DNA from: a virus
Taxonomy: Duplodnaviria > Caudoviricetes
Strand: one strand, 5' to 3'
Virus record (IMG/VR): IMGVR_UViG_3300032231_000265
Span: 1-38,966 of that record
DNA: 38,966 nt
Shown piece by piece: positions 2,634 through 38,444 of this stretch. Both the position numbers and the translations under genes were made by a program. How positions within the stretch are numbered: the stretch's first letter is position 1; every line of letters starts with the position of its first letter. The notes beneath the pieces are model-generated. The model searched no databases. It was not told the origin of the DNA and was given only the letters and a program-made list of their open reading frames with translations.

Positions 2634-3597
2634 GAGCACCCAAACATACAGACCAGCTGGGTACGTTGAGGATAACGCACGGCTGGCGAATCAGATCGGC
2701 GCTCGCATCGGAACTAAACAGTGGGAAGGTTACTCTGGTGATCGTGTAGCTGGCCTGTCTGAGAACGAGCAGATGGGCATGGAGATGGCTCGCGATAACG
2801 TGGGCATCGGTCAGCCATACTTCGATCGAGCTGCGAGTTACGCTGAAAGCGGCGCTCAGTCTTGGGCTGACGCTGACCAATCCAGATACATCAACCCGTA
2901 CATTAAGGGCGCACTCGACCCAGCAGCGCGTGAGATACGCGAGGAAGGTGCAAGAGGCGCTATGGCGCTCGATGCCCGTGCCAGTAGCATGGATGCCTTC
3001 GGTGGCAGTAGAGCGGCTCTGATGCGCTCTGAGAACCGCGAGAAGACTATTCAGGGTGTCTCCGACCTGTACGGTAAGGGCTACGCTGATGCGTACAAGT
3101 TTGGTGCCGAGATGTTCGGTGACGACAAGGCGCGGGAGATGATGGCATCGGATCGCTTCAGGCAGCTCGGTGGCGACGTGATTGACGCATCTCAAACCGA
3201 CATCTCAACCCTTATGACGACCGGAGCTGTGGATCGCAACATCCAGCAGGCTGTGGCTGACTTCGATTTCGCTCAGTTCATGGAAGAGCGCGACTGGGAC
3301 TGGAAGCAGCTCATGGGAGTGGTCTCCGCGATGGAGGGATCGAAGGGTTCGTACACGACAACCCAGACCAAGGAAACTGAAGAGAGCGGAGGTAACGCTG
3401 CCGCAGTTATTGGTGGCATCGCTCAGGTGGTTGCTGCGATGTACACAGGTGGAGCGTCTCTGGCGCTCACTGCTGGAGCTAAAGGTGCATCCAGCGCCCT
3501 TGGTGGTGGTGGAGGTGGTGGTGAAATGGGTGGCTCTGCGATTGGTGACTTTGGCAGTATGCCCGACTCGTTCGCAACCGGAAGCACACCAAGTTAA
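2614..3597 (+). CDS. Putative ejection (internal virion / DNA transfer) protein
   Basis: GTG at 2614 follows AGGAG (2601-2605); MGGKKTKSTQT start, YINPY and AFGGSR motifs, Gly/Ala-rich hydrophobic C-terminus; position. Confidence 0.65.
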   Translation: MGGKKTKSTQTYRPAGYVEDNARLANQIGARIGTKQWEGYSGDRVAGLSENEQMGMEMARDNVGIGQPYFDRAASYAESGAQSWADADQSRYINPYIKGALDPAAREIREEGARGAMALDARASSMDAFGGSRAALMRSENREKTIQGVSDLYGKGYADAYKFGAEMFGDDKAREMMASDRFRQLGGDVIDASQTDISTLMTTGAVDRNIQQAVADFDFAQFMEERDWDWKQLMGVVSAMEGSKGSYTTTQTKETEESGGNAAAVIGGIAQVVAAMYTGGASLALTAGAKGASSALGGGGGGGEMGGSAIGDFGSMPDSFATGSTPS

Positions 3598-3608: not shown

Positions 3609-5036
3609 ATGCTCATTAAAGATGACCCACTCAAAGGTGCATTGCCACCAGCTCCGAACACAACTGGATCGCCAGCACTGGCTGGGCAACCTCCATCAAT
3701 AACTGGCGCTCAACCAAATTTACCTGTTCCTGATATGCAGGGGCAGGGTTCAGCTTTGGCACCTGCATCACCCGGTAGTGGTAGTGCGAACATTGGCGCA
3801 CCCCTGTCCAATGCAGCACCAGAACAGCAGGCTGGTGCAGGTGCCAATTTAGACCTTGTGAAGGATCGCGGAACGCCTGACGAGTTTCACGCTAAGAACC
3901 TTGCAGAGGTTGGTAGCGAGAGGGCTACCAGCTTGGCATTCGAGATTATTGGTGGGCGCAATAACAGCATGGGTGTTGCTCCTGAAGACATTCGTCGTCA
4001 GGGCGCTCGCGCAAACGCATCGCTTGGCATGGAGACCCCAGAGAAGGCACAGCAGATTGTAAATGAAGTTGTGTTTAAGCCAACGCTCGCCACCATGAGA
4101 GCGGAGGTTGATCAGGAGGTTATCTCAGCAGACGACGCTGGCATTCGCGGTACGCAGCTGATCGCCAATGTAAATGGCGCTGAGACCGAGGATGACCTCA
4201 AAGAGATCGCCATGGAGGTGCATAACGAAACCACTGGCGAGACCATCAAGAAGAACAAGGTCGAGGACCTCAACTGGTGGGGATCGGTCAAGAAGTGGTG
4301 GAACAAGGGTAAGGGCAATCCAGATGAGCAGGTCACTGGCTTCATGGGCGGTATGAACAGGAATGAGCTTGGCATGTTCGTGTTCCAGTGGGGCGCACTG
4401 ATGATGGCGAACTCAAGCGAAGGTCTGGGTCCAGCAATGGGCATGGCTGGCATGGGCGCTATAGCTGGGCATCAGGGTCGCGAGACTCAAGCGCAACAGA
4501 GCGCACTCGAAGAGCGCAAGGTCGCTGCTGCCGAGATGACAGCAGGAGCTGCCCAGACCAGAGCAGAAGCTGAGTCAAACAAGACGGCGAACATCCAGTG
4601 GGGTAAGGACGGAGCTTATGTCATCGAGCGTCAGGAGGATGGCACGTGGAAGGCTGTTCCTCTCAAGGACTCGGAGACAAGCGCACAGCTTGCACCGGGA
4701 CTCACACCCGGATCGAAGCAAGGTCAGTTCCGCGACCAGTGGATGTACGACCAGATGATCGCAGCTGGCTATACAGAGCGGCAGGCTGTTGACTTCATCA
4801 ACGGTGCGCCAACAGAGTCTGAGGTTAAGTTGACGGTGCAGCGCGTCTGGTTGTCTTACGATGACAGGCAGAAGCTGCGTTCACCAATCAGCGGTGAGGT
4901 AAAGAACAAGTCTGAGTTCACTGAGGCTGAATACAAGAAGTGGCTCGATGAGCAGGTAGGGGCATGGTCGTCAGGTGGGGCGCTCCCACCAACCACGGAC
5001 CCCGGTAAAGATGCAGTTGATGAGTACAGTGAATGA
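3609..5036 (+). CDS. Putative second ejection / internal virion protein
   Basis: 475 aa; Pro/Ala-rich N-terminus, hydrophobic Gly-rich segment; ATGA overlap with the giant ORF. Confidence 0.55.
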   Translation: MLIKDDPLKGALPPAPNTTGSPALAGQPPSITGAQPNLPVPDMQGQGSALAPASPGSGSANIGAPLSNAAPEQQAGAGANLDLVKDRGTPDEFHAKNLAEVGSERATSLAFEIIGGRNNSMGVAPEDIRRQGARANASLGMETPEKAQQIVNEVVFKPTLATMRAEVDQEVISADDAGIRGTQLIANVNGAETEDDLKEIAMEVHNETTGETIKKNKVEDLNWWGSVKKWWNKGKGNPDEQVTGFMGGMNRNELGMFVFQWGALMMANSSEGLGPAMGMAGMGAIAGHQGRETQAQQSALEERKVAAAEMTAGAAQTRAEAESNKTANIQWGKDGAYVIERQEDGTWKAVPLKDSETSAQLAPGLTPGSKQGQFRDQWMYDQMIAAGYTERQAVDFINGAPTESEVKLTVQRVWLSYDDRQKLRSPISGEVKNKSEFTEAEYKKWLDEQVGAWSSGGALPPTTDPGKDAVDEYSE

Positions 5037-8000
5037 GCACACCACAGCAACAGGAACTGGAACGAGCACAGCAGGCTCGTGAGCGAGCTAGTGCTGCCGG
5101 TGACTCGGATGCCGTTAATGCAATAGACGGATACATCAGCCAGATTCAGCAGTCCATTGGCTCTATAGAGCAGGAGGATGACGACCGTGATCCAGACCTG
5201 TTCCCCGGTGTGTCTGGTCCAGCGCTCAGCCCACAAGAACGAAAGCTAAAGATCGGCGCTCTTGAGAGAGCGCAGCTTGAGGTCGGTCCTACTGCTGGTG
5301 AGATTGAAGAGAAGGGCGCTCTCTTTGGTGGGTGGGGTCAGGGTCTGACTCCAGAAGTGTTTGAGAGCAGCCGCAGGGCTGAGCAGGTGCGTCAACGAGC
5401 CGCTCAGGGTGGTGGTCTGAATCCGCTTACCGATCGAGAGCAACAGGCGATGGCTGAGATCGAGGGGTTCGAGCGAGACCAGAACTTGCCTGATGCTAAC
5501 TTTGCTGAGGCGCAGCAGTACCGGCCAGCCAGTACAGACAAGAGGGCACCGGATGGGCCACTAATGCCCGGTGACCGTCTGGTCGTTGACCCAGAGACAG
5601 GTCAGGTACGCAAGGCTGCGAAGTCTCCAGAGACTCTGGCAGAGCGGCGCATTGCTGAACGCAAGCTGTCTGATGCTAGTGCTCAGGTTAAGACTGGCAC
5701 ACAGCAGATGATTGCTAACCGGCTGCTATCAGAAGAGGCAGAGATTGAAAGCCGTAAGCTGACGCAGCAGATCATCTTTGAGCAGCTGTCCGAGCAGGAA
5801 CAAAAGCGCCTTAAAGAACAGTTCAAGGGCAAGGAGATCAAGGACGTTGCTCCAGCTGCATTCATTAAAGCGGTTGAAGCCAACCCTGAGAATCAGGATG
5901 TCCTTGATGGCATCTCTGGCGACGAGAGCTGGGAAATTGTCAAGGAACGCTGGAGGCGCATCGGCAACAAGATTCTTGGTCTACGCGCTCCGTACCCCGG
6001 CATGGCTGAGGCGCACAACATTACCGGCGCTGCTGATCCTCAAGGCGACGTATTTGGCATCGAGACCAACTTGGTTCCAGAGGGCTTCTACGAAGGCAAG
6101 GGTAAGGATGCGCCACTCTACCCCGGTGCTTCTGAGCACATGCAGGAGTACCTGAACTCAGCCAACTCGATTCACTTTTATGAGAACGTCATTCAGCCTG
6201 CGTTTAAGGCTGAGGACAAAGAGACCGGCAGGGAGATCATGCCGGGTGAGCGGCTGAGTAAATACGTCGAGAAGGTTCGGCAGGAGACCTACAGCCCGGA
6301 AGCGCTGGAGAAAAAGAAGAAACGCTTCGTTGCTGAGGACGCTACTTTTTACAACCCGTTCTCATGGGCAGACGGAACCACGGCGATGCCATGGGACGAC
6401 TTCGATGCCTTCATGATCCATGTGTTTGAGAACACCCCACAGATCGCGGTTGGCATTATTGCTGCTCGTATGGGTGGTCGTGGTGGCGCTGGTTTGGCTG
6501 GCAGGATTCACGCAGGTCAGCGACTAAGTAGAATTGAAACGATGCGCCGCAGGGCGTCTGGCATCGGAGGTGCTGCGAGCGGTGGTGGCACAGAGGGGCT
6601 GCTTATTCATGATGCGGTGAAAGAGCAGATCACCCAAGGTATGAACGAACTCGAAAACGAGGCGTTCGAGAACAGTCCCTACTACCTCTCCATGATCGAG
6701 GCTGGCTTTCCTGATGAGGTTGCCAGACAGGTACTGACTGCTGAGACAGCGAGGCTTGGTGGTAAGACCGCATTCGTTGGGTCGGGGCTGCTGATGGGCG
6801 CTCCCATGGGCTACCTGTTTGGCAGGGCTGCTGCTGGACGCATAGGAGGCTCTCTACAGCGCGAGGGCGCTCTTCAGACGGTCGGGCGCATTGGTACGGC
6901 TGGTGGTCTTGAGGCTATACAGGAAGGCTCTCAGGAGGTCTCAGAGGATGTCATCACCAATCTCGGCATGAGAGCGGTTGACCCTGATCGCCCGATCTTC
7001 GATGACGTGTTGAACACCTTCATGGGTGGCGCACTGATCTCGTTCGTTCCGGGCGCTCTTGGTGGTGTCCAGCGCAGCGATCCAGCTGGTCTGACGAAAG
7101 AAGACAAGACCGTGATGGACGCTACGCAGGACTACATGGATGCGACCAACCGTCGCTATTCATTTGAGGCGAGCATTACATCACCACAGTACATCGAGAA
7201 TACAGCGCCACAGCAACGCCTAAGTGACCTGAAGAAGCTGGAGAAGCTACAGGAGAAAGAGGCTCAGCAGATACTGGCGAATCAGGATGTCATGCGTGAC
7301 CACCTGACCAAGAAGGGTGGACCAACAGCTGATACCGAGCTGATGATGCTAGATCGACTGGTCGCCAGAGCTAACGCCACCCTGACCGACATCGCGGTTG
7401 CTCGCTCACGCAGGACCACCTCGACTCAGGCGCTGGAGCAGTACAAGCGCGAGCAGTCAGAACGCAAGTACATTCAGAATCAGATCGATGATCAGGTTCT
7501 GGAAATTCACGACATCGCTCGCCTTGCCAACAACATCGATAAGGTGCAGCAGGGCGAGGCGCTCACCTCTCCAGAGGAATACAAGGAGCTGATCAAGCAG
7601 GGCTGGGCGAAGGAAACCGAGTCAGGCGAGTTCATTATCCTACCGAAGGGGTCGCGAGCACTGAACCATCTGGTGCAGCAGCACGAGTCTCTGATCAAGA
7701 AACTGGAGAAGGGCTACACAGGCGTTGATCGACGCTCCGAGGGCAATGCTGAGCTGCGTGCCAAAATGGATGCGATGACTGAGGATGAGTTCGAGACAGC
7801 CATCTATCGTCGTGAGATCACCGGACTACAGAATCGTCGTGCCATGAATGAGCGGCTGGAGAAGGACCCGGACGCACAGAGCTTCGCATACGCTGACCTC
7901 GACTCACTGGGCTGGGTCAACGACAACATGGGTCACAATGCTGGTGACAAGTTCCTGATGACAGCTGGTCAGGCTTTCCTTGAGGAAGATGGCAAGAACG

Positions 8001-11000
8001 GGATACAGGTGTACCACGTCTCCGGTGACGAGTTCGTCATGTCCGGTAAGACCGAAGCTGATGTTGAGGCGGCAATGAAGCGCGTGCGTGACCGCATGGC
8101 AGCGAAGCCGATCAAGGCAGGCATGGATCAGTTCAACCCCAGCCTCACATGGGCAACCGGGGAGACAGTTGAGGCCGCTGACGCAGCCAACAACCGTATG
8201 GCTGAGAGTCGCAAGGTGTCAGGCAAGCGAGCTGCTAAGGGTGGCGCTCCAGTCAGTCACAAGGACATCGGTTCCACGCAGGGTGTGTTGCTGGATCGTG
8301 CTGGAGGGTCTCAAAGTCGTAGAGGCACTACTTATTTTGAGGGCATTACAAGGGACGACCGTACCACTAAGAGTGGAAAAAGGATCGAGTATTTCGTTGA
8401 TGAAAGCGATGAGTCTGGCTCAGTTGTATTCAAGAGAAGAATTGATGGCAAGGTATCTAACTCATCATCTGTAAATATTGAAGCTAGTGAATTTATCCCG
8501 ATGCTGGACAGTGAGTCGCGGGATCAGTTTGAAGAGATGTATGCCGATGAACAAGACGTTCAGGTCTCAATAAAAAGCGTAAAGACAAACCCAAAGACTG
8601 GCGAAAAAATCTACGAGGTCAGAGTATCAGCTGAAGGTTCCATTAAGGTTGATATGACATTTATTGGTGAGGCTGGTCCTATTCAGGATGACATGTTCGG
8701 GGCTGAGCCAGCCCAGTGGTCTGACATCAGGAGAGAGATTGAGATCGGTGATGAGGTCGAGATCATTACGCCAGAGAACCGGGTGGTCACTGGCACGGTC
8801 TCCATGGTTACGCGCAAACGTGGGCGTGACCGCATCAAGGTGTTCGTTGAGGGGCATGAGGTTACCTTCAACCCATTCAAAAACTGGATGATCGAACCAA
8901 AGAACCCGAACGCACTGCGTGACATCTCGCCGCAGGCTGCTGTGAATCAGGCTATGCCGGGATCGCAGCCGAACGTGGTGCCTGACATCATGATTGGCAG
9001 GGTTGGCAGGGACGGTCAGTGGTACGCAGACATGTCTGCCCTTGGCACTGAGTACCAGTATCAGGGCGAGACGTGGCAGGCACCAAGGGAGCTGGCTCCA
9101 ACGCTGCCTCGCGCCACCAAGAAAAAGAGACGCAAAGCCGAGACAGTGGTCCGAGCACTCTTCGGCAAGTACAAGAACCTGCCGCGCATCCAGCTCTGGG
9201 ATAGCTGGGACGATATACCTGATGAGATTCAGCAGGCGATCTATGATGAGGGCGGCACGGCTCACAGCACTCGTGGCTGGTTCGATCACAATGATCCGTC
9301 ACGTGGTGTACACATCATCCTGCCGAATGCGATCAACATCGTTGAGAGAAGGATCAAGGGACTCAATGAGACGGAGATTATCGAGCGTGCAGTAGCTGAG
9401 ACGCTGTTCCATGAGATCGTAGGTCACTATGGCATACGCGGACTCATCGGTAACGAGACAGAGCTGCGGTCACTGATGCACCAGCTGGTTGACTCTATGT
9501 CAGGCAAGCGGCGCAAGTCCATGTATAACCTGCTTGGGCTGAGTCAGATGCACCCACAGAACAGGCCAGTATGGAAGGAGCTGGACGAGAACCAGCGCAG
9601 AAAAGAACTCCAGAAGTGGGACGCTGAGAAGCAGCTGGTTGGTGAGGAATACATCGCTTACATGGTGGGCGACAACCACGCTAAGCTGAGCGAGCCTGAC
9701 CCTGAGACCAAGGGGATCATCAAGAAGATCATCGCATGGGTGAAAAGCTGGATGGTGCGTAACGATTACGCCAAGTACTTCCACAACCCAGCGAAGACAG
9801 CAGTCAAGAAAGCAGCTAAGAACGAGCGCATCACTGATGATGATGTGGCGAACCTGATTGCTCAGGCGCAGGACTTTGTTCGTTACCGGAGCGAGTGGCA
9901 CTGGACCTCACTGGGCGGCGATACATCGTCACTGGTCAGCCAAGGTCTGCGACTGATGCGAGATGGTGACATCTTCCAGAGCGGTCTGGTTACTGCTATC
10001 GAATACGGCAAGACCGAGCAGCTCATCTGGCGCACCGAGAAGAAAGACTACAACATAAAGAGCAAGGGCGAGCTGAAGCGCATTAAGAAGCAGGTGCCCA
10101 ACGGTGAAGAGATCAGTGGCAAACTACCCATCTTCCCGGCTGAGGGAACGATCGCAGAGTACAAGGCTGCTATCGAGCTTGCTGTGAATGAAGGCTACGT
10201 CACCCAGAACGAGGTGAAGACGCAGCGCATTATCGCCTTCCTCGACAACCTGTCACAGGCTGACTTGGCAACGTACCTGCCGCGCAGTAGCAGAGACCCA
10301 TGGTGGCTGAACCAGATGCAGCCAGTGCGCGAGAGCCTGATGACGGCAGCTAAGATTGCTGAGTGGAATGATCAGGGTATTGACCCGAACACCATCCTTC
10401 CAGAAGACAAGCAGATGACGACCGAGGAAGCGTACAAGCTACTGCTCAGTCAGAATGAGATTGTCTGGAAAAATCAGGGCGACGATACCGAGCACAGGTT
10501 CGGCGGCAAGGATTATGACGATGTAACCGATGGAGACATCGAGCAGTTGAAGGCGCTACCAAGCGTGCTGCGTCGTGCGTATGAGCAGGCGCAGGAAACG
10601 GTCTTGTCTGAGACAAAGATCGGCAAGCGACAGAAGGTTCCCAGAGAACTGCTGACGGCATACATGAATGGCGAGAAGGTCATCCGCATCAGCTTCAAGA
10701 CGCTCGCCATGCGAACCGGCAGCATGGAAGAGTCGGCGCGTGAGGTCCTTGGTGAGGATGAGTTCAACGAGATTCACAATGACTACGGCTTCGTAGATAT
10801 TGATGAGTGGGTAAACGATGAAAGGATTGATGAGGAAGCCGCAGCAGAGATCAGGCACGCACATGACGAATCTCAAGCCAAGGGTTACAACATTGGATAC
10901 AACGAGCAGTCAGGCGAATGGTTTGATGTAGCACCAAGCTCAGCTGCCCATACTAGCTACATGCCTCACTACGAAGCATCCGTTGATGGCTCGGCTCGAA

Positions 11001-14000
11001 ACTTCGCGATCCAGATGTACGGTCGTGGGCCGATGTACGCTCGCGACACATCGCACAGTGACCACCTGAGCCACCACAACTTTCAGGGTGACCTGCCGGT
11101 GAGTGGCACGACAGTCGGTCACATGCGCACCACGCTGATGTATGACGCTGATCCTGCACCACCGACAGCGCCGAATCCTGACCATCAGGGGCACGTGACG
11201 TATCTGGGTGAGCTACAGGCCGATTGGCAGCAGTACGTCTCTCAGGCATTCAACTCACCCGAAGAGCAGGCAGCTGGAGCGTCTCGCATCAGCACCAACT
11301 TCATAACGCTGGTTAGTCGCACCAAGGACCTGTCCGCTGCGTTCAGCCAGAAGGTGAAGTTGGAGTTGGAAGCAATATTGAAGGTGCCGCTGACAGATGA
11401 GCAAGCCGAGGCTGCATTCAGTCAGGTCAGGTCGTACTGGAATACGTGGGACTCAACAGGGGAGCCTGAGTTCACGGCACGCCTTACTCTTGCTGAGCAG
11501 GAGGGTGGCGCAGCTGGTCGTATGGCTGAGCTGAAGGTGTTGCTTAATGAGAACCCAGTGGGTAAGGCGTTCGCATTGCAAGGGAAGGCTGGAGCTGCTC
11601 GTAACGTAGTGAAGCAGATGATAAATGCGCTCGATGCTCTCAAGGATAAGTACCCACCACTGAACGTGCAGAGCAAGCAGTACGTCTCTGACATCAGGCT
11701 ACACGAAGCGCTCGATTCTGCCGCCATCAATAAATATATATGGCAACTGCAAGAGACGCTCACCAAGGTAAGTAATCAGCTGGAATACGCTGACCGATCA
11801 GACAACGCTTCTGAGGTTGCCGACTATCTGAATCAGGGCCTGAAGCGCCTCGATAACTGGCCTAAGAACGTAGGTGATGACCTGATCAGGAGATCGCGCT
11901 ACTCGACATACCAGACCAGAATCCCAGCCCTGATGAATGAGGTCTTGGATGTTTTTCAGACCACGCTGGATGGCGCTCAGCTGAGCAACAAGGGCTTGGC
12001 TACCGTCGAAGAGCTTGAGGGTCACATCAACAAGACTGGTTCGAGAACCATCGTCATAGAGAGCACGGCTCTTGATGATAACGGCATCAGCACAGCTGGC
12101 GATAACGGTCAGGACATCATGGAGTTCTTCAACCAGATGTCAGGTAACAACGTCGCAGCTGGTGGCAACCCTGCTATTGACATTAGTCCGAGATTCGATG
12201 CTGATGGGAATATAGTGTTGAACATCAGTGGTCCGATCGAGGCAATTGATGCAGCCACAGCGTTTGTTCCTGACCTGCTGAAGTACTACGCGAAGAACCT
12301 GTACAGTATTAAATGGAAAGACCGTGAGCGTGAGCGTGTCCAGCGGATCGTCCAGCAGTCTGAGCAAAATGCTTGGACCTCACCCAATGACATTGACTGG
12401 GAGACGATGAAGGAGTGGGCGAAGTTTGAGGCAGTCGATCTTGACAACCCTGACAGTTGGAACGATGACGCGAAACACATCATAGAGCACCACGGCATTC
12501 GGGGAAGAACGAAATACATAGAGGATAATATTGATCGTCGTGTTAGTCGTGATGCGTGGCAGCTGAATGAAAAACTTGACCAGATGAGAATTGATGAGTT
12601 CACGACAGAGGATGGTCAGCCTATCTCACGTGAGCGTGCTGAATACACGAGCGAGATCACTGCCGATGGCAACAACGACCGTGCTGAGCGGTGGCTAAGA
12701 TATGCGCTGTCTAATGCTAAAGATCGAGCGAGGGCGGCGGCTCAGCAGCCGGGTGGAGAAGCGTACGAGCAGGCACACAAGGAGCTTGCTGAGCAGTTCG
12801 ACCAATCACCGGCTGGGCTGTTCGTTGGTCTTCTGCCTGCCAAGATAGGTGATCCAGCTCCGGGCTTTGAGCATGGCAATATAGAAAAAGAGACACCAGT
12901 CTACTTCTTCAAGAAAGACCCCGGCAAATACTGGCAGACGTGGATTGGCAGAGAGAATCAGGTTTACCATCAGGAGCGAGCGGACCTCAGTAACGTGCAG
13001 GATCAGGTTGCCTACTGGGTTAATGAACACTTCGAGTGGCACGCCAGCAGCAGGGATTTCCCCGACCTGTACTCGAAAGGCAAGAAGGATTTCCTGCGCA
13101 CGTTCCCGAACCCGTTCTATGACACCACTGACGTAAAGTCTGCGGCTGACATTCCAAAAGAGCAGGAGCCTAACTGGGATGACGTTACCAGCGGCATCTT
13201 GTCTCAGAGCAAAACGATTGAGGGGATCGAAGAGCACGGTGAATCGAACTTCCTATTTGAGGAATCCATAAGGCTCAACAAGAAAAAACATCGCAATGAC
13301 TGGATTCCAGACATGCCGATGAGCGACGAGGACGTTCGCGCTCTGTTCCTGAAGGGCCTCCTTGCTGATGCGGTCAGGCGAGGCGTTCCGCGTATCGCTT
13401 GGTCAGGTGGCCTTGCGTCCACGAAGCGTGGGGGTAACTGGGATGCTCGCTGGACCAATGTCACGAAGATCACATGGTCTCGTGAGAAGATGAAGATTCG
13501 CGGCAAGGAGAAAGAGGTCCTTGTCCTTCAGGGTGACGCGACGGCTGATGGCAACTACTTCGGTGGATGGTCTGAGCCGTTGGTTGTTGACACGTCTGCG
13601 CAGGCGCTGGGCACTGTGCTTGGGCAGAAAGAGCGACAGGCGATACTGGACCAGATCAGGGGCAAGACTCAGGCGCGTCAAGAAACTACCATTGAGCCGC
13701 AGGAGAACGACATCCAGATCAGTGGGTCTGGTGGCGGCGCGTTCTACCTGACGCTCAGTGGATCAAACGACATTCTGCACACAGCCGTAACACTGGAAGA
13801 TGCTACCGCGAAGAGGGCTGAGCTATTCGCCGCTGCTCAAGCAGCAGGTGGCTGGCCTAACACGCAGCAGACATCTGGCGCTCCAACAACGTCAGTGTTT
13901 GGTGGTGAGTTCCTTGATAGTGGAGTGATCCACGCTGATGAGTTTGGCACCACACCGATGCGCGTTCTGGTAGGTCAGTCGCTGTCACAGATAACAGCGA

Positions 14001-17000
14001 GTGAGGGCTACATCCCAACGCTGGACATCACGACATCGGATAGCGTCGATCGCTATTGGTGGTGGGAGCGTGGCGCTCGCTTCTCTTACGACCAGCTGAC
14101 CTACAAGGCATGGGACAACATACTCAAGAGGTATAACTCCAAGATAGAAGAGGGAGTGATTAAAACCAATGAGTATGACAGCCCGTTCAGTTTGTCAGGT
14201 ACTAGCCTCGGTGAGACGCGGGTCCCAGTTATACCAGCTGATCTTGTTCAGCAGCATGGCAGGATTACTGTCGAACCTGTCTCTGGTCAGCGTCAGGGCT
14301 ACGTGGTTACTGGAGTCGATGACCTCGTGATCCCGCAGGTCTTCGCCAACAGAGGTGAAGCAACTGCCGCAATGGACGAATTCATCAGGGTCAACTCAGG
14401 ACAGCCAGTCAACGCAGCAAGGGTTTTCCAGATCACCATCACCGATGAAATGCGTGCGGAGTTCTCGAAGCCTCAGCCGTTCATGCACTACGATCCGTAT
14501 GAGGACCCGGTGCTGAAGTCTGCTGCTGAGAGAATCGGCAGTAAGCTGCCCAAGTTCCGTGACCGCTACAACCAGTTCAAGCAGACGTGGAAGGACGAGG
14601 CGCATCAGGGGATGTTCGACAAGTTCTACGGCATCAAGTATGCGTTGCAGCGTGCTGAAGTGTGGGACGAGCTGGACGCGGAGAACAACCCGTACATACA
14701 GTCTCGCTTCACAACGTCACTAGACTCAGTGATGAAAGCGGTACTTGAGTTTGGTTACCCAGTCTGGAAGGAGGGCATTACCCAGACTGAGGGCATGGGG
14801 TTGCTGGAAATATTTCAGCCTATTCTCAATGACGTTGAGACATGGGCTATGTACATGGCAGGCAAGCGCTCGAAGGGGCTGCTTCTCGAAGGCGTGTCAT
14901 CGCTCACTGCTAATGAGATAGCACAAATTCATGCGATCGCTAAGGACAACTTCAAGGGCAACAAGCAAGAAAGGCTGATGTCATTGCTCGCGTACTGGGC
15001 AGCATCGCAGGACGCAGGCAGCGACAACAAGGTGATGGCTGATGCAGCCAGATCAGCTATCGATGAGCTGCGCGGAGAGATGAAGAAGGGCCACAACCTG
15101 AGTCAGCTCGACAACAGCAACGCCAAGCTCGACAAGATAATTGAGGGTGGTAGGGAGCGGAACTTCAGACCATACGAGATCAAGAAGATGGCTGACCTTG
15201 GCAACCACTTCACCCAGTTCGAGAAGGTGGCTAAGGACTATGCTGCGTTTAACAAGAAGGTGCTCGACTACGCGCAGGAAGCCGGGATCATCAACCCTGA
15301 GACAAGGCCACTCTGGGAGAACGCAGACTACATTCCGTTCTACCGTGTACAGGACGACAGGCTGGCTGGTGGGCTTGGCAAGGGAGTGGGTATTGCGAAC
15401 CAGCCGCACCAGATCAAGAGGCTCACTGGCGCTGAGGATAATGTTGGTGACCTGATGCACAACATCATGACCAACCTGACCAATCTGGTCGATGCCTCAA
15501 TGAAGAACCATGCGGCTCGAATGACGGTCGATGCTCTCAAGGAGAGCGGCATCATTCAGAGGAAGCCGATGACTGTTGAGCAGAAGCTGGTATCGATGGA
15601 TCAGATCAGGAAGAAGCTGATCGAGCGCGGCCTGAACCCTGACTCAATACCTAAAGACGCTCTCTCTGGGTTCCAGCAATCGTTCGCGCTGACACCACCA
15701 AGCGGTGAGGGTGTGATCTCCATCATGCGTGATGGCAAGAAAGAGTTCTACTACACCGACGACATGCTCCTGTATCGATCGATGTCATCGATCAACATGA
15801 AGCAGTTCGGTGAATGGATAGGGCTACTCAGAGGGCCGAAGCGCCTGCTGACCACCATGGTCACGCTGGACCCCGGCTTCATGCTTGCCAACTTTGTTCG
15901 AGACTCAGCCTCAGCGTTCGTGCTTAGCCGGGATCACTTCGTCCCTGTCGCTGGAGCCGTCAGGGGCTTTGGTCAGGCGCTCATTAAGGATGAGGCAATG
16001 CGCACCATGCTGTCAGCAGGTGCCGCGTTTGAGAGTGGCTACATCAACGCTGCTGACCCGACCGCTACGCACAGACTGCTGAAGAAGGCGCAGCGCAAGA
16101 AGGGCTTCGCCCGGACGATCATTGGCTCACCACGCTCAGCGTTCGAGGCTTACAGGGCACTGGGGTCAGCGGTCGAGAACTCGAACAGACTGGCTGTGTA
16201 CAACGCAGCGATCGCAGCAGGCAAGAGCAAGGCTCAGGCAGCGTTCGAGGCAAAGGACCTGATGGACTTCTCCATGAGCGGTGATTGGCCTGTGATTCAG
16301 TTCCTGATTCAGACTGTGCCGTTCATGGGCGCTCGTTTGCAGGGTATCCACAGGCTTGGTCGTGGTGTGCATGAGCACCCACTCGCGTTCACCATGAAGG
16401 GCGCATTGATTGGCATGGCTGGTCTGGCACTCTGGTTTACGTACAAGGAAGACGAGCGCTACAAGGACTTGGAAGAGTGGGACAAGGACACTTACTTCCA
16501 CTGGTGGATTGGTGAAGAGCACTACCGTCTGCCGAAGCCGTTCGAGGTTGGTGCCATCTTCAACACGATCCCAGAGCGGTTCTTCGAGGCGATGTACTCA
16601 GAAGAGAACGACGCTGGCAAGCTGCTCCTGAATCGGTTCGGCTGGATGCTCACTGAGACCTTCTCCATGAACCCGATTCCGCAAGCAGTCAAGCCGCTGG
16701 TCGAGTCGTACTTCAACTACAACACCTTCCAAGAAAGGCAGATCGTCAGTCCCTACGAAGAGCAGCGGATGGCACCTGAGCAGTACCGCTACAACACCAA
16801 CCCAACGTGGATCGAGCTGGCTCGAATCATGCCGGGTGGCGTTGATACGATCAGCGAAAAGATCAGGTCGCCACTGCATCTTCAGAACCTGTACGCGGGT
16901 TACATGGGCACGCTGGGACGGTACTTCGTGATGGCGAGTGACGCGATGATTCGCGAGAAGATGGGCTACCCAGAGGAACCTGACTGGCGCAAGGGCGACT

Positions 17001-17560
17001 ACGTTGTGTTGGGTCGGTTCTTCCGTGGCGACAATCCGCGCCGGACCAAGTACGAAGAAGAGGTCTACAACCTGATCAGGAAGGTCACGAAGATTCAGGG
17101 GTCGATGAGGTTCCTTGATAAGACCGAGCAGTTCGACAGGCTCGACATGATCGAGGATGACTGGGAAGCATACATCGACATCGCGCAGGACCTTGAGGGC
17201 ATCCGTGAGGACGTACAGGACATCAACAAGGAGATCATGTACATCTGGCAGGACCCGAAGATGGGCGGCGAAGAGAAGCGCAGGCGCGTCGATGATCTAC
17301 AGCGTGAGAAGAACGTGCTGTTCAAGGAAGGCTGGGAGCTTCGACCGGGTGGTCAGGCTGGTGCCGGTCAGCGCAAGCTGGGGATGGAGGACGTAAGGTT
17401 CATCATCGATCAGTTTGGCGTTGATGACGAGATCGATGAAAAGATTAGGGACGCGCTGCCTGCAACGGCATCACTCATGGAGGGGCTTGATTCGCTCAAC
17501 ATGAGAGAGCTTGAGAGGCTGGCAGCAATTGTATCTGACGAAGCGAGAGGACAGCAGTAA
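5033..17560 (+). CDS. Giant polyvalent virion/ejection protein (4175 aa) with GGDEF-like, zincin-like and LPD38-like domains
   Basis: GGDEF-like ITGLQNRR..DLD..VNDNMGHNAGD..SGDEF (SGDEF at 8021); HEIVGHYG plus EEYIA (from 9410); C-terminal DLMDFS..VPFMGARLQG..RLPKPFEVG..NPIPQAVKPLVE resembling LPD38; sits between ejection genes and lysis. Confidence 0.8.
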   Translation: MSTPQQQELERAQQARERASAAGDSDAVNAIDGYISQIQQSIGSIEQEDDDRDPDLFPGVSGPALSPQERKLKIGALERAQLEVGPTAGEIEEKGALFGGWGQGLTPEVFESSRRAEQVRQRAAQGGGLNPLTDREQQAMAEIEGFERDQNLPDANFAEAQQYRPASTDKRAPDGPLMPGDRLVVDPETGQVRKAAKSPETLAERRIAERKLSDASAQVKTGTQQMIANRLLSEEAEIESRKLTQQIIFEQLSEQEQKRLKEQFKGKEIKDVAPAAFIKAVEANPENQDVLDGISGDESWEIVKERWRRIGNKILGLRAPYPGMAEAHNITGAADPQGDVFGIETNLVPEGFYEGKGKDAPLYPGASEHMQEYLNSANSIHFYENVIQPAFKAEDKETGREIMPGERLSKYVEKVRQETYSPEALEKKKKRFVAEDATFYNPFSWADGTTAMPWDDFDAFMIHVFENTPQIAVGIIAARMGGRGGAGLAGRIHAGQRLSRIETMRRRASGIGGAASGGGTEGLLIHDAVKEQITQGMNELENEAFENSPYYLSMIEAGFPDEVARQVLTAETARLGGKTAFVGSGLLMGAPMGYLFGRAAAGRIGGSLQREGALQTVGRIGTAGGLEAIQEGSQEVSEDVITNLGMRAVDPDRPIFDDVLNTFMGGALISFVPGALGGVQRSDPAGLTKEDKTVMDATQDYMDATNRRYSFEASITSPQYIENTAPQQRLSDLKKLEKLQEKEAQQILANQDVMRDHLTKKGGPTADTELMMLDRLVARANATLTDIAVARSRRTTSTQALEQYKREQSERKYIQNQIDDQVLEIHDIARLANNIDKVQQGEALTSPEEYKELIKQGWAKETESGEFIILPKGSRALNHLVQQHESLIKKLEKGYTGVDRRSEGNAELRAKMDAMTEDEFETAIYRREITGLQNRRAMNERLEKDPDAQSFAYADLDSLGWVNDNMGHNAGDKFLMTAGQAFLEEDGKNGIQVYHVSGDEFVMSGKTEADVEAAMKRVRDRMAAKPIKAGMDQFNPSLTWATGETVEAADAANNRMAESRKVSGKRAAKGGAPVSHKDIGSTQGVLLDRAGGSQSRRGTTYFEGITRDDRTTKSGKRIEYFVDESDESGSVVFKRRIDGKVSNSSSVNIEASEFIPMLDSESRDQFEEMYADEQDVQVSIKSVKTNPKTGEKIYEVRVSAEGSIKVDMTFIGEAGPIQDDMFGAEPAQWSDIRREIEIGDEVEIITPENRVVTGTVSMVTRKRGRDRIKVFVEGHEVTFNPFKNWMIEPKNPNALRDISPQAAVNQAMPGSQPNVVPDIMIGRVGRDGQWYADMSALGTEYQYQGETWQAPRELAPTLPRATKKKRRKAETVVRALFGKYKNLPRIQLWDSWDDIPDEIQQAIYDEGGTAHSTRGWFDHNDPSRGVHIILPNAINIVERRIKGLNETEIIERAVAETLFHEIVGHYGIRGLIGNETELRSLMHQLVDSMSGKRRKSMYNLLGLSQMHPQNRPVWKELDENQRRKELQKWDAEKQLVGEEYIAYMVGDNHAKLSEPDPETKGIIKKIIAWVKSWMVRNDYAKYFHNPAKTAVKKAAKNERITDDDVANLIAQAQDFVRYRSEWHWTSLGGDTSSLVSQGLRLMRDGDIFQSGLVTAIEYGKTEQLIWRTEKKDYNIKSKGELKRIKKQVPNGEEISGKLPIFPAEGTIAEYKAAIELAVNEGYVTQNEVKTQRIIAFLDNLSQADLATYLPRSSRDPWWLNQMQPVRESLMTAAKIAEWNDQGIDPNTILPEDKQMTTEEAYKLLLSQNEIVWKNQGDDTEHRFGGKDYDDVTDGDIEQLKALPSVLRRAYEQAQETVLSETKIGKRQKVPRELLTAYMNGEKVIRISFKTLAMRTGSMEESAREVLGEDEFNEIHNDYGFVDIDEWVNDERIDEEAAAEIRHAHDESQAKGYNIGYNEQSGEWFDVAPSSAAHTSYMPHYEASVDGSARNFAIQMYGRGPMYARDTSHSDHLSHHNFQGDLPVSGTTVGHMRTTLMYDADPAPPTAPNPDHQGHVTYLGELQADWQQYVSQAFNSPEEQAAGASRISTNFITLVSRTKDLSAAFSQKVKLELEAILKVPLTDEQAEAAFSQVRSYWNTWDSTGEPEFTARLTLAEQEGGAAGRMAELKVLLNENPVGKAFALQGKAGAARNVVKQMINALDALKDKYPPLNVQSKQYVSDIRLHEALDSAAINKYIWQLQETLTKVSNQLEYADRSDNASEVADYLNQGLKRLDNWPKNVGDDLIRRSRYSTYQTRIPALMNEVLDVFQTTLDGAQLSNKGLATVEELEGHINKTGSRTIVIESTALDDNGISTAGDNGQDIMEFFNQMSGNNVAAGGNPAIDISPRFDADGNIVLNISGPIEAIDAATAFVPDLLKYYAKNLYSIKWKDRERERVQRIVQQSEQNAWTSPNDIDWETMKEWAKFEAVDLDNPDSWNDDAKHIIEHHGIRGRTKYIEDNIDRRVSRDAWQLNEKLDQMRIDEFTTEDGQPISRERAEYTSEITADGNNDRAERWLRYALSNAKDRARAAAQQPGGEAYEQAHKELAEQFDQSPAGLFVGLLPAKIGDPAPGFEHGNIEKETPVYFFKKDPGKYWQTWIGRENQVYHQERADLSNVQDQVAYWVNEHFEWHASSRDFPDLYSKGKKDFLRTFPNPFYDTTDVKSAADIPKEQEPNWDDVTSGILSQSKTIEGIEEHGESNFLFEESIRLNKKKHRNDWIPDMPMSDEDVRALFLKGLLADAVRRGVPRIAWSGGLASTKRGGNWDARWTNVTKITWSREKMKIRGKEKEVLVLQGDATADGNYFGGWSEPLVVDTSAQALGTVLGQKERQAILDQIRGKTQARQETTIEPQENDIQISGSGGGAFYLTLSGSNDILHTAVTLEDATAKRAELFAAAQAAGGWPNTQQTSGAPTTSVFGGEFLDSGVIHADEFGTTPMRVLVGQSLSQITASEGYIPTLDITTSDSVDRYWWWERGARFSYDQLTYKAWDNILKRYNSKIEEGVIKTNEYDSPFSLSGTSLGETRVPVIPADLVQQHGRITVEPVSGQRQGYVVTGVDDLVIPQVFANRGEATAAMDEFIRVNSGQPVNAARVFQITITDEMRAEFSKPQPFMHYDPYEDPVLKSAAERIGSKLPKFRDRYNQFKQTWKDEAHQGMFDKFYGIKYALQRAEVWDELDAENNPYIQSRFTTSLDSVMKAVLEFGYPVWKEGITQTEGMGLLEIFQPILNDVETWAMYMAGKRSKGLLLEGVSSLTANEIAQIHAIAKDNFKGNKQERLMSLLAYWAASQDAGSDNKVMADAARSAIDELRGEMKKGHNLSQLDNSNAKLDKIIEGGRERNFRPYEIKKMADLGNHFTQFEKVAKDYAAFNKKVLDYAQEAGIINPETRPLWENADYIPFYRVQDDRLAGGLGKGVGIANQPHQIKRLTGAEDNVGDLMHNIMTNLTNLVDASMKNHAARMTVDALKESGIIQRKPMTVEQKLVSMDQIRKKLIERGLNPDSIPKDALSGFQQSFALTPPSGEGVISIMRDGKKEFYYTDDMLLYRSMSSINMKQFGEWIGLLRGPKRLLTTMVTLDPGFMLANFVRDSASAFVLSRDHFVPVAGAVRGFGQALIKDEAMRTMLSAGAAFESGYINAADPTATHRLLKKAQRKKGFARTIIGSPRSAFEAYRALGSAVENSNRLAVYNAAIAAGKSKAQAAFEAKDLMDFSMSGDWPVIQFLIQTVPFMGARLQGIHRLGRGVHEHPLAFTMKGALIGMAGLALWFTYKEDERYKDLEEWDKDTYFHWWIGEEHYRLPKPFEVGAIFNTIPERFFEAMYSEENDAGKLLLNRFGWMLTETFSMNPIPQAVKPLVESYFNYNTFQERQIVSPYEEQRMAPEQYRYNTNPTWIELARIMPGGVDTISEKIRSPLHLQNLYAGYMGTLGRYFVMASDAMIREKMGYPEEPDWRKGDYVVLGRFFRGDNPRRTKYEEEVYNLIRKVTKIQGSMRFLDKTEQFDRLDMIEDDWEAYIDIAQDLEGIREDVQDINKEIMYIWQDPKMGGEEKRRRVDDLQREKNVLFKEGWELRPGGQAGAGQRKLGMEDVRFIIDQFGVDDEIDEKIRDALPATASLMEGLDSLNMRELERLAAIVSDEARGQQ

Positions 17561-23676: not shown

Positions 23677-25320
23677 TTATCTACTGAACTCACTGATAAC
23701 AGGGAGTACGTTAGCGTCGAATCCGACCACATCCAACATGCCGGAATCGTTCGGGTCAGCGATCGTAAAGTCGGTCGCTGTCGTTGCAACAACCACGAGC
23801 TTAGCGTTCGGGTTGTGGGTCTGCCTGTAACGACGCAGTGCATCGACCGGCTTAATCTTGCCAGCCCAAGTCTCACTGTCGGTGATTACGACGAACGTGT
23901 CCACCATGATGTTGTTTGCCGAGGCATACAGCATTGGGAGAGCACAGTCAGTCGAGCCGAAGTTGTGATTGCGCGTCTTGCTCATCACGTCCGGCAGCGA
24001 GTCGTTCGAGCCGATACCCAGATCAACGAAGCCTTCCAGACTTCCCTGATCACGACCGAAACTGTAGCGACTTGAGCCTGACGTGAAGCCATGGATGAAG
24101 TGAACAGGCTCAGTACGAGCGATGATCATTGCCATGGCACCAGCAGCTTCAGCGGCGCTGATGTTCGAGCCAGAGATCGGAGACGACATCGAGCCTGATA
24201 CGTCCACGCCGACCATGAATGCCTTGCCAGTAGGCTCTACGTTCGCGAACGACTTGTAGAAGCCAATGTCCAGAGCACCAAGAATGGCGTTGTTAGCGTG
24301 CCACTTCAGGCTGCCACGGAAACCCTGACCTGCGGCGTAGTTCTTCAGTGCCAGCAAGTAGTGCATCGGGTGGATGCGCGAGCGCTTGATCTGCTCGTCA
24401 TCCTTGATGCGATCCATGACCATCGCCTGCTCAGGGGTCATCGGCTTGATGGTGCCATTGGCAGTCATCTTGCCCAGCTGACGAATCGTCGCCATGAGTG
24501 GCATCGTAGACAGCAGCTGCTTATTCACAGCCTCATCCTTCAGCCACTCGGTCGGCAGCATCTCCCATGACAGGTTGTACTGCTCGACCAGCTCGTGCGG
24601 CTCATTGGTATGCTGCCAGTTGCCAATACCATTGGCGGCTGCATAACCCTGATAGATGTCCGGCAGAGCCTTCATCACACCAATGTCCTCCAGCCTTTCC
24701 GGGCGGCACGTCACATCGAACATTGCACGCTTGCCTGCGTCGGTCGTAACCGGGTGAGCAAGGCGCAGGATGTCACGGTGCGACCAACCATCACGCTGAC
24801 GATACTTCAACAGCTGGTAAGCCAGCCTGTCGTTGTTCTTCTCGTCATACCAGCGCTGGAATGCACGCTTCGTGGCGCGGCCCCAACCACCAAAGGCTTC
24901 AACGAACTGAGCGAACTGGAAGAGATGAGTGCCGGTGCGAGCGACTTCGGTCAATACGCCGAATGCCAACTTGCGCGTCTGCTCATTACCCAGCTTCGCT
25001 GCGGCAGCGAGAACAAACAGGGCAGCATCGTTCTTATGCGCACGAGCTTCCTGTGACACCTTCACGACCGTGTTGACGACGCGCAGACCATCAGTTTTTA
25101 TCAGTCCGATGACTGTGTTCGCGTTGTCTTTGGTCAGGCGGCTTTCGCTGACGTAGTACGTTCCACCCTCGGAGCCGAGGATAAGAAATCGTTCCAGTCG
25201 ATCCCAGTCAGAGACAGCATGGACGAATCCACCTGCGCTGTTCTCGACTTCGTTTTCACGACCGGGTGTGCGCTCCATCTGTGGAGTCGCCTTGGTATTT
25301 ACGTGCTTTGAATAATCCAT
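23677..25320 (-). CDS. rsr: Ro60 (TROVE + vWA) RNA-binding protein, 547 aa
   Basis: NSAGGF, RLERFLILGSEGGTYY, RTGTHLFQF, GWGR, KYRQRDGWSHRDILRLAHP, MIDAS DVSGSM, TDC, ITDSET, DVVGFD; ATG 25320 has an AGGGG RBS 6 nt upstream. Confidence 0.96.
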   Translation of the reverse strand: MDYSKHVNTKATPQMERTPGRENEVENSAGGFVHAVSDWDRLERFLILGSEGGTYYVSESRLTKDNANTVIGLIKTDGLRVVNTVVKVSQEARAHKNDAALFVLAAAAKLGNEQTRKLAFGVLTEVARTGTHLFQFAQFVEAFGGWGRATKRAFQRWYDEKNNDRLAYQLLKYRQRDGWSHRDILRLAHPVTTDAGKRAMFDVTCRPERLEDIGVMKALPDIYQGYAAANGIGNWQHTNEPHELVEQYNLSWEMLPTEWLKDEAVNKQLLSTMPLMATIRQLGKMTANGTIKPMTPEQAMVMDRIKDDEQIKRSRIHPMHYLLALKNYAAGQGFRGSLKWHANNAILGALDIGFYKSFANVEPTGKAFMVGVDVSGSMSSPISGSNISAAEAAGAMAMIIARTEPVHFIHGFTSGSSRYSFGRDQGSLEGFVDLGIGSNDSLPDVMSKTRNHNFGSTDCALPMLYASANNIMVDTFVVITDSETWAGKIKPVDALRRYRQTHNPNAKLVVVATTATDFTIADPNDSGMLDVVGFDANVLPVISEFSR

Positions 25321-25335: not shown

Positions 25336-25358
25336 CGGCTCGTCCATCACGAGCATGT
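25336..25358 (-). promoter_or_regulatory. Permuted Ro-site-like hairpin next to the Ro60 RBS
   Basis: ACAU-GCUCGU-GAUGG-ACGAGC-CG, near-identical to 25776-25797; ends ~4 nt before AGGGG. Confidence 0.6.
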
Positions 25359-25362
25359 AAAA

Positions 25363-25493
25363 CGGGCATGTTACTGGCAGCGAAAATGACGCGCTCTCCC
25401 AGCTGAGCTACACCCACCATTGTAGGGTGGGCGACTGGACTCGAACCAGTGACCTCGATCTCCCAAAGATGATAACGCTATCCATCCGGCCCG
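25363..25493 (-). ncRNA. yrlA: YrlA-type Y RNA (131 nt) with circularly permuted tRNA-like domain
   Basis: Terminal stem CGGGC-CGG/CAU-GCCCG; T arm ACUGG-UUCGAGU-CCAGU lies 5' of a loop-closed acceptor-like stem CGCCCACC/GGUGGGUG and D arm GCUC-AGCUGGGA-GAGC; adjacent to Ro60. Confidence 0.88.
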
Positions 25494-25503: not shown

Positions 25504-25565
25504 GTGGACGTGCAAATTACCCAGCTGTTTTATCTTACAAGGATAACGCTTGGCATCCGGTCCAC
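25504..25565 (-). ncRNA. Short Y-like RNA (62 nt)
   Basis: GUGGAC-CGG...CAC-GUCCAC terminal stem, CGUUAUC motif, U-rich flanks. Confidence 0.72.
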
Positions 25566-25576: not shown

Positions 25577-25657
25577 GCGAGCATGTTACGAGAGACCGAT
25601 CGGCTTTCGCCAGTTTGATTTCAGAGTCAAAGATAACGATCTTACTCACCGGCTCGC
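25577..25657 (-). ncRNA. Y-like RNA (81 nt) with two internal hairpins
   Basis: GCGAGC-CGG...CAU-GCUCGC; AGAUCG/CGGUCU upper stem; CGUUAUC; UUUGA/UCAAA and GGC-GAAA-GCC hairpins. Confidence 0.75.
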
Positions 25658-25694
25658 ATTGTCCGGTTGCCACGCCGATCCACTCAGCGTGGCG

Positions 25695-25725
25695 AAAAAA
25701 GTCCCCGGCTATCATTTCACCGGGG
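25695..25725 (-). terminator. Intrinsic terminator / attenuator inside the RNA cluster
   Basis: CCCCGG/CCGGGG stem followed by AC-UUUUUU. Confidence 0.65.
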
Positions 25726-25810
25726 GTTGTAACTATGGGCCGAAGCCCTTCCTTAGCAGATAACGGTCTATTCCTCGGCTCGCCTTGACGAGCATGTTGC
25801 GAACAACCGA
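25695..25810 (-). ncRNA. ~115-nt sRNA or leader with circularly permuted Y-like stem
   Basis: Starts ~7 nt after a -10 box; CAU-GCUCG-loop-CGAGC-CGA, then CGUUAUC, GGGC-UUCG-GCCC and the terminator. Confidence 0.62.
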
Positions 25811-25816
25811 ACGTGC

Positions 25817-25844
25817 ATTGTAAGCAACTGACGTAGGAAGTCAA
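25817..25844 (-). promoter_or_regulatory. Sigma70-type promoter
   Basis: TTGACT-16-TACAAT. Confidence 0.75.
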
Positions 25845-25862: not shown

Positions 25863-25964
25863 TGGAGCCACTGAAAAGAATCGAACTTTTGATAACCGTG
25901 GAGGCATCGGCCCTTGCGGACGTGGTTCGCTCACGGTGCCCTAACCAACATGGGCGACAGCGGC
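25863..25964 (-). ncRNA. tRNA-like RNA (102 nt, CCA end) with extended anticodon arm
   Basis: GCCGCUG/CAGUGGC acceptor, GCCC/GGGC D arm, CCGUG/CACGG enclosing 31 nt, AAAAG-UUCGAUU-CUUUU T arm, U-CCA. Confidence 0.8.
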
Positions 25965-25967: not shown

Positions 25968-26034
25968 GCCTGAACATATAAATGACGGTGGGATATACGA
26001 TTTGGAGTGGTAACCCAATGTCTCCGGCTCAGGC
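25968..26034 (-). ncRNA. Y-like RNA (67 nt), first in the cluster
   Basis: GCCUGAGC-CGG...UAU-GUUCAGGC; GAC/GUC and UGGG/CCCA upper stems; GUUACC variant motif; begins ~6 nt after a -10 box. Confidence 0.68.
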
Positions 26035-26039: not shown

Positions 26040-26067
26040 ATGGTACTCTGGGTCTGGTGAAAGTCAA
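26040..26067 (-). promoter_or_regulatory. Sigma70-type promoter for the RNA cluster, back-to-back with a possible rightward extended -10 (TGnTAAAAT, 26075-26083)
   Basis: TTGACT-16-TACCAT. Confidence 0.65.
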
Positions 26068-38370: not shown

Positions 38371-38444
38371 GTCGCTGTAGCTCAACTGGTAGAGCAGCCG
38401 GATTTCAACCCGGATGGTACGGGTCGAGACCGTCAGCGACTCCA
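38371..38444 (+). tRNA. Atypical tRNA or tRNA-like gene (CCA encoded, anticodon indeterminate)
   Basis: GUCGCUG/CAGCGAC acceptor, canonical UAGCUCAACUGGUAGAGC D arm, CCGG/CCGG with 8-nt loop AUUUCAAC, 4-bp T stem with GUCGAGA loop, U-CCA. Confidence 0.7.

Follow-up and report, generated by a model that had tools for sequence, protein, structure and literature searches.

The window, meaning here the whole 38,966-nt stretch of DNA analysed, is a phage record encoding YqaJ, RecT, SSB, a helicase, a primase, a small terminase, an endolysin and a Ro60 protein. The conserved start of the Ro60 gene, rsr, is position 25320 and not 25356, and its product can be aligned with solved Ro60 structures over its full length. 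Within the 750 bases upstream of rsr lie seven units assembled from two short motifs (Table 1). The 5'-type strand reads G-R-R-C-C-G-R, followed by GUUAYC in six of the seven units, while the 3'-type strand reads CAY-G-Y-Y-C. The 5' motif comes first in four units (Y1, Y3, Y4 and YrlA), as in Y RNAs, and second in three, namely the RNA analysed here (hereafter the element), the unit behind promoter P2 and the hairpin preceding rsr; in these three a loop joins the strands. The family that Rfam names for Y1 (ceN72) is a nematode family and the match is sub-threshold, as is the Rfam match to YrlA (25371-25466), which scores 28.5 bits against a gathering value of 69. The modules of the cluster are shuffled, since in locus L002 a promoter and swapped-unit module of the P2 type lies directly before rsr. 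In all 15 loci of the close clade the swapped mini-hairpin ends 13-17 nt ahead of the ATG of rsr, its letters changing while its pairing is kept, and is a candidate translational autoregulation site, or autoregulatory operator, of rsr. Between the P2 unit and Y3 (25690-25723, minus strand) there is also a hairpin rich in G+C, then a U run and another hairpin, an arrangement that resembles a terminator by eye, although a terminator scan made no call there.

Table 1. Features of the Y RNA cluster and rsr, in the order of transcription, with the parts of the element listed after the element itself.
Feature	Position	Strand	Remarks
Promoter P1, sigma70-like	26040..26067	-	Predicted driver of Y RNA cluster and rsr; position conserved in relatives
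Y1, normal-order short Y RNA	25968..26034	-	Weak Rfam ceN72 match (E 0.92); ends 3 nt before the element
Putative tRNA-order Y RNA (element), compact CCA-encoding subtype	25863..25964	-	102 nt; assigned from fold, homologues and R1 match
Element, acceptor stem, 5' strand	25958..25964	-	RNase P site predicted directly before 25964; U at -1
Element, D arm	25938..25955	-	4 bp, GG in loop
Element, anticodon-type stem, 5' strand	25932..25936	-	Equals upper stem of Y units
Element, Ro60 helix, 3'-type strand	25918..25925	-	Shares 7 letters with 3' strand of unit Y4
Element, GCAA cap	25914..25917	-	At the place of the free ends of normal Y RNAs; unconserved
Element, Ro60 helix, 5'-type strand	25905..25913	-	Bulged C and GA (GNCGA motif as defined in PMC4201824)
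Element, anticodon-type stem, 3' strand, and UUAUC	25891..25900	-	UUAUC directly forms the variable loop; no anticodon hairpin
Element, T arm, acceptor 3' strand, U73 and encoded CCA	25863..25890	-	From sequence and fold
Promoter P2, sigma70-like	25817..25844	-	Predicted
Second swapped-order Ro60 hairpin with UUAUC	25747..25811	-	At start of P2 transcript; without tRNA ends
Y3, normal-order Y RNA	25577..25657	-	Ends approximate
Y4, normal-order Y RNA	25504..25565	-	Ends approximate
YrlA-type Y RNA	25363..25493	-	Closed acceptor, T arm ahead of D arm
Swapped-order Ro60 mini-hairpin	25336..25358	-	Immediately 5' of rsr ribosome-binding site
rsr, Ro60 gene (TROVE and vWA)	23677..25320	-	547 aa from conserved start

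The element, upstream of rsr, is a tRNA-shaped RNA read from 25964 to 25863. A preliminary description of the locus had recognized a tRNA-like cloverleaf, all parts of which were found: a 7-bp acceptor, a 4-bp D stem with a 10-nt loop containing GG, a 5-bp anticodon-type stem enclosing 31 nt, the variable loop UUAUC, a 5-bp A-U-rich T stem with the loop UUCGAUU, and U73 followed by CCA. The MFE fold agrees, comprising this cloverleaf and a GUCC-GCAA-GGGC hairpin. Pair probabilities are 0.98-1.0 in the acceptor, 0.95 in the D stem, 0.68-0.93 in the anticodon-type stem, 0.57-0.77 in the T stem and 0.70-0.76 in the inner hairpin, and 0.13 for the C-G pair under the bulged C. In addition to the three arms the RNA possesses U8, A14, G18G19 and U54-U55-C56-A58, but its 15:48 combination would be U:C, which is non-standard for tRNA. 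Given this U:C, the 4-nt D loop of relatives and their often 4-bp T stem (see below), tertiary folding as in tRNA is not assured. The folding energy is not better than that of shuffled sequences (z -0.68 alone, z -0.75 with the upstream unit), so support for the element is comparative. ARAGORN, which the preliminary description had suggested as a check, made no call on the element or in eight related loci, and Rfam returned no match, including none to YrlA (RF02553) at E values up to 5 and no RF00005 call. The element fails as a decoding tRNA in that the 31-nt insert replaces the 7-nt anticodon loop with its U33 and purine 37, and, judged from its sequence, it cannot decode.

The 31-nt insert places a swapped Ro60-type helix in the anticodon arm, with UUAUC next to it. 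Both motifs in the element's order occurred in 66 of 200,000 shuffles of the insert, a rough figure as the pattern was written once the neighbouring units were known. In Y RNAs the 5' strand is the main Ro60 contact (Chen et al., PMC4201824). When compared with the Ro60 motif GNCGAAN0-1G, the element has GNCGA with U as the sixth base, and the other Y units of the phage deviate as well. The YUAY expected after the upper stem is present as UUAUC in 8 of 8 copies of the element, confirming the earlier remark that the variable loop carries the motif of the Y units. The element lies on the rsr strand, 543 nt upstream of the conserved start, and is thus within the 4 kb used as a criterion for YrlA. 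The preliminary description had envisaged a Ro60 substrate or a mere processing signal; since the insert itself is the swapped Ro60-type helix, we read the element as a Y RNA. It is very probably a Y RNA gene in tRNA order, in which a hairpin likely to be bound by Ro60 has been grafted into the anticodon arm.

Conservation was assessed in loci that Ro60 searches retrieved from three collections; L001, L014, L024 and L102 are the window's own sequence, represented in tables by L001. Among the ten other close-clade loci that cover the whole region, seven contain the element 3-4 nt after Y1, a spacing seen in 8 of 8 copies and consistent with the 3 nt noted originally for the window. These homologues, with their compensatory changes and CCA ends, exclude the private decay event that the preliminary description had named as its refuting condition. 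The three remaining loci have Y1 but not the element, which is thus dispensable, at least as a processing signal. Pairing is complete in 8 of 8 copies for the acceptor (7/7), the anticodon stem (5/5) and the inner helix (4/4) despite changed letters, the best partner having been picked by script. The CCA end is encoded in all eight, as is G1-C72, and U73 is present in seven. In relatives the D loop is reduced to 4 nt with its GG kept, and the T stem is often 4 bp. The cap is variable in sequence and ranges from 4 to 29 nt; the GCAA hairpin reported earlier does form in the MFE fold, but the GNRA cap is not conserved, and the GCA that had been proposed as an anticodon lies inside this cap. The element has the same sequence in L007 and L028, and that in L288 is one base off the window, a change from G.U to A-U. 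L288 and two DNA contigs retain the element, which in the contigs has no listed change, while the core of Y1 has been replaced.

In a blastn search against annotated phages 18 records were returned, containing tandem tRNA junctions that resemble part of YrlA, and none covers the element. A pattern scan of viral contigs found 14 stretches, five from this clade and nine unrelated. The compact alignment has 18 members, in which the inner helix is paired in 94.4% of cells, with two-sided changes in two of four pairs, and the anticodon-type stem in 80%, whereas slid controls all reach at most 59%. Loci L020 (~1800-1852) and L023 (~2985-3035) contain, downstream of a sigma70-like promoter, a short RNA-like gene that ends in CCA and has an acceptor and a T arm but lacks an anticodon arm; these loci gave no Ro60 match.

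In a structure scan, RNAs of tRNA shape that contain the swapped helix but exceed the element in length were also detected close to more distant Ro60 genes. Nineteen of these were aligned, the acceptor, D and T stems, but not the inner helix, being chosen for pairing; the inner helix covaries also in a plain MAFFT alignment of the 19 sequences. A model built from them, R1, had no knowledge of the element in its training, and was run on the window and 258 of 317 loci, omitting duplicates, short fragments and most non-Ro60 loci. It matched the element at full length (35.8 bits, E 1e-6). A cut-off of 55 bits was adopted as ordinary tRNAs score about 48 bits in the loci and 54.7 in one whole genome. 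Above this value there were 97 matches in 63 loci, the loci having been picked for containing them and 19 of the matches being training rows. Their inner helix is 94.7% paired with two-sided changes in five of five pairs, and all 21 pairs together are 97.9% paired against at most 46.9% in slid controls, in an alignment fitted to R1 itself. With 13 matches set aside as possible tandem-copy junctions, the class comprises 84 tRNA-order RNAs in 54 Ro60 loci (24 genome, 22 viral and 8 metagenome), including two doubtful rows, L307:2150 and L255:1908. R1 gave at most 34 bits on five non-Ro60 control loci. The window's element falls at the compact end of the class range, and a second model built from the 18 compact members, R2, recovers longer members outside its training.

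The association with Ro60 was examined in 121 genomes from the phylum of L250 (a Chthonomonadaceae record), with 28 candidates scored per genome. Of 30 TROVE-positive genomes 21 had R1 matches, in 20 of the 21 beside the gene and on the same strand, and none of 91 TROVE-negative genomes had one; the Fisher value of 8e-17 is inflated by kinship, and the matches may include tandem-YrlA junctions. In one genome (G054:C1:2682098-2682380, minus strand) two strong R1 matches lie 1.7 Mb away from the TROVE gene. The initial description of a non-decoding tRNA mimic tied to a Ro60/Y RNA cluster is upheld, and the RNase P signal that it proposed for maturing the 3' end of the upstream Y RNA is plausible. 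Class members outside this clade stand alone or in arrays, and in L240, L244, L252, L253, L264 and L266 they lie within long tRNA gene arrays flanking rsr. Following UUAU, 17 of the 83 members with the motif have a stem of 3 bp that closes a 7-nt loop containing U33 and a purine at 37 (mean 0.36 and maximum 3 in shuffles). These 17 anticodon-like hairpins carry 11 different triplets, 66 members have no canonical hairpin at this place, and five of the 83 lack the anticodon-like stretch almost wholly. CCA is encoded in 13 of 84 class members, against 149 of 353 ordinary tRNAs from those loci and all eight copies in this clade, so a free CCA end may matter only here. An acceptor lengthened by a -1:73 pair occurs in 62 of 97 class matches, compared with 133 of 347 ordinary non-His tRNAs. 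Rfam, run on 20 loci, made just plain tRNA matches, on eight longer members and on no compact one.

To relate the class to YrlA, the alignment of 84 was re-opened at the cap and the profile rebuilt (junctions having been filtered; the result was the same before filtering). The permuted profile gave one end-to-end match to the window's YrlA (25493-25363, 62.5 bits, E 7e-19), whereas the native-order profile matches it in two halves. As the cap-reopened profile spans YrlA from end to end, the tRNA-order class and YrlA are, by this comparison, circular permutants. The geometry of the Ro60 complex would be alike in both forms, because in each the Ro60 site continues the anticodon-type stem. Compared with YrlA (RF02553; PMC4201824; structure preprint 10.1101/312249), the element has a similar Ro60-type 5' motif that deviates at the sixth base, and shares the upper stem, YUAY, the T arm, the acceptor stem and the D arm, and it likewise lies beside rsr on the same strand. 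In YrlA the T arm precedes the D arm, the acceptor loop is closed, the RNA ends lie free in the Ro60 stem and there is no free CCA; the element, in contrast, has tRNA order, an open acceptor with an encoded CCA and a capped Ro60 stem. The hairpin that follows YUAY in YrlA, its 'V arm', is absent from the compact subtype. By defining topology the element is therefore not a YrlA, but in all likelihood it functions as YrlA does.

The supplementary YrlA-II alignment of PMC4201824 contains, in our reading, the anticodon-like hairpin of the class in Mycobacterium smegmatis and Streptosporangium, while its Calothrix and Stanieria rows run from a T arm through 7 nt, NCCA and a spacer to a D arm. The latter layout is what reading across the junction of two tandem tRNA-order genes should give, and suggests that certain published cyanobacterial YrlA predictions span two such genes. 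In L273 (1903-2174) and L258 (1887-2161) tandem tRNA-order units have acceptor halves that pair equally in the tRNA and YrlA frames, which would be the expected look of a permutation intermediate. The 'V arm' of the window's own YrlA (25456-25476, minus strand) is a short stem with a 7-nt loop resembling a Pro(UGG) anticodon loop with G37; relatives have other triplets there.

Several known RNAs resemble the element in part. The nearest functional precedent is the RNase P product of M. smegmatis YrlA, which has a 7-bp acceptor, gains CCA after cleavage and is bound by Ro60 with tRNA-like 5' and CCA ends (PMC4201824). That form is the two-piece product of a permuted gene, whereas the element is one continuous gene that encodes both tRNA order and CCA. 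Deinococcus radiodurans Yrn1 is like the element in that D-like, anticodon-like and T arms have been modelled in tRNA order, but differs in having a Ro60 helix made from the RNA ends at the acceptor position, with no open acceptor or CCA (PMC4201824). In the Thermus phage phiLo, as in the window, a phage Ro60 gene is preceded by Y-like RNAs (Yrl1 and Yrl2), and the phage Ro60 binds these RNAs and host PNPase (PMC12135203); the RNAs have a normal 5'-3' stem, and the terms 'anticodon' and 'CCA' are absent from the main text of that paper. The predicted b7a-tRNA (Burroughs and Aravind 2016, as described in the Discussion of 10.1101/312249) sometimes lies next to Rsr. It is defined by Band-7/RtcB neighbourhoods, unlike the Ro60-linked class, and may, on a comparison by description only, overlap part of the tRNA-order class and be prior art for that part. 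Literature searches, which did not cover Burroughs and Aravind 2016, Sim and Wolin 2018 or Sim et al. 2020, retrieved no description of a tRNA-order Y RNA, and a term search of an allo-tRNA paper (PMC5389517) and a review of non-canonical tRNAs (PMC7609411), in their available parts, returned neither Y RNA nor Ro60.

These comparisons suggest how the element might function. On one strand P1 precedes Y1, the element, three more Y-type units, YrlA and rsr, an arrangement that would yield a polycistronic early RNA. RNase P would cleave before G1, thereby freeing the 3' end of Y1, and 3' trimming would halt at the encoded CCA; we have moderate confidence in this predicted release by RNase P with a CCA end. 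Motif order and covariation point to the inner helix, bulged C included, as the putative Ro60 site. Because this helix extends the anticodon-type stem, Ro60 would be placed on the tRNA body exactly as on YrlA, just the open end differing. In the complex the elbow and the CCA end would then be exposed to host enzymes whose substrates are tRNA or structured RNA, which is the weakest step; possible targets are PNPase, in keeping with the Thermus phage case, or defence enzymes that attack tRNA ends. A role as bait or tether, that is, as a Ro60-tethered tRNA look-alike, is tentatively proposed. The element would not be a bait for anticodon nucleases, since the compact subtype has lost the anticodon hairpin. 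Points that speak against this mechanism are the weak T stem, the U:C at 15:48, the reduced D loops of relatives, the improbable pair under the bulge and the absence of the element from three of ten relatives. Taken as a whole, a tRNA-order Y RNA that is cut out by host enzymes and held by Ro60 as a non-decoding look-alike with a free CCA is the likely explanation.

Charging of the acceptor by a host synthetase, such that the aminoacylated Y RNA acts via EF-Tu or as an amino-acid donor, has a small chance of being correct, and is compatible with the reading as a Ro60-held look-alike rather than exclusive of it. It is favoured by the constant CCA and G1-C72 and the near-constant U73 of the copies, by the full bacterial Gly acceptor set (U73, G1-C72, C2-G71 and G3-C70) in four relatives, and by the report that U73 alone can confer Cys identity on minihelices (PMC9976931). 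The acceptor type nevertheless varies among copies (Thr-like in the window, Gly-like, or of a G73 type), and none of the determinants listed for Gly, Thr and Cys in the anticodon is present. Among 353 ordinary tRNAs from the fetched loci, the window's first three acceptor bases with U73 occur in 15 tRNAs, 12 of them Thr; the type in L002 and L007 is Gly in 8 of 8, and that in L031 is mixed. The CysRS identity suggested initially is not sustained by this Thr-like acceptor, which has U73 and C3-G70 but C2-G71 where bacterial Cys identity, as listed in PMC9976931, has G2-C71. It is quite unlikely that the element is a processing signal alone, through which RNase P matures the Y1 3' end while the RNA cut off has no role of its own. 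Such a signal would fit the fixed spacing behind Y1, the independent folding of Y1 and the element predicted in the precursor, and the intact acceptor-T coaxial arm and CCA of relatives whose D arm shrinks. In mascRNA/menRNA-type cloverleaves a shrunken tRNA-like fold lies directly behind another RNA and is cut by RNase P, although these are eukaryotic and have no protein-docking helix. The principle of 3' processing by an RNase P-cut cloverleaf is mentioned in 10.1101/312249, and D. radiodurans Y RNAs are co-transcribed with a tRNA (PMC4201824). A signal, however, has no need of UUAUC or a covarying Ro60 helix, Y1 occurs without the element in three of ten relatives, and class members elsewhere are solitary or in arrays.

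The preliminary description also considered a tRNA with an intron of ~24 nt, whereby the insert would be excised and the halves ligated into a decoding tRNA. Longer members carry the insert within the 5' strand of their anticodon stem, and excising it could give a normal tRNA, as 17 of 83 keep the U33/purine-37 hairpin; rsr, moreover, often neighbours RtcB (10.1101/312249). In the element the anticodon hairpin is gone and no 24-nt deletion, of eight possible, yields a loop that has both U33 and a purine at 37, the canonical hairpin is missing from most members and heterogeneous in triplet in the others, and RtcB was found in neither of two near-complete relatives, making an intron very improbable. 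Scarcely credible, finally, is a decayed tRNA or chance cloverleaf without function; the unremarkable folding energy and the absence from three of ten relatives would be in line with it, but compensatory changes in four helices, a constant position and a Ro60-tied class that extends across phages and bacteria argue against it.

What is new with this window is a compact, CCA-encoding subtype of tRNA-order Y RNAs. The compact subtype is missed by ARAGORN, and other members of the class are filed as plain tRNA by Rfam. It is a standing proposal that Y RNAs arose from tRNA, and in the published model YrlA derives from a dimeric pre-tRNA, the leftovers of which happen to make a Ro60 site (10.1101/312249). 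The common single-gene form in tRNA order, with a ready Ro60 helix and, in some members, an intact anticodon hairpin, provides a concrete candidate intermediate, and would recast the 'V arm' of YrlA as a relic anticodon arm. More speculatively, and with a modest chance of being right in full, tRNA order could be the surviving ancestral form of Y RNAs, in which a tRNA gained a Ro60-docking arm on its anticodon stem; tandem copies would have been re-opened at the cap to give YrlA, and this phage clade would have trimmed the RNA to a CCA-ended form of ~100 nt, possibly chargeable, displayed by Ro60 as bait for those host enzymes that attack the 3' ends of tRNA. Because the class is present in cultured species, such as Desulfonema magnum (L245) and Limnoglobus roseus (L309), binding, processing and charging are directly testable, and the phage subtype that always encodes CCA eases the hunt for an effector of tRNA-like Y RNAs.

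Elsewhere in the window, a degenerate tRNA on the plus strand (38371-38444) has an irregular anticodon loop, U73 and CCA, and the 5' strand of its acceptor equals that of the element in six of seven bases. Also on the plus strand, positions 5033-17560 encode a polyvalent protein of 4175 aa with LPD38 and a GGDEF-like stretch, which adjoins genes of the DNA-ejection type.
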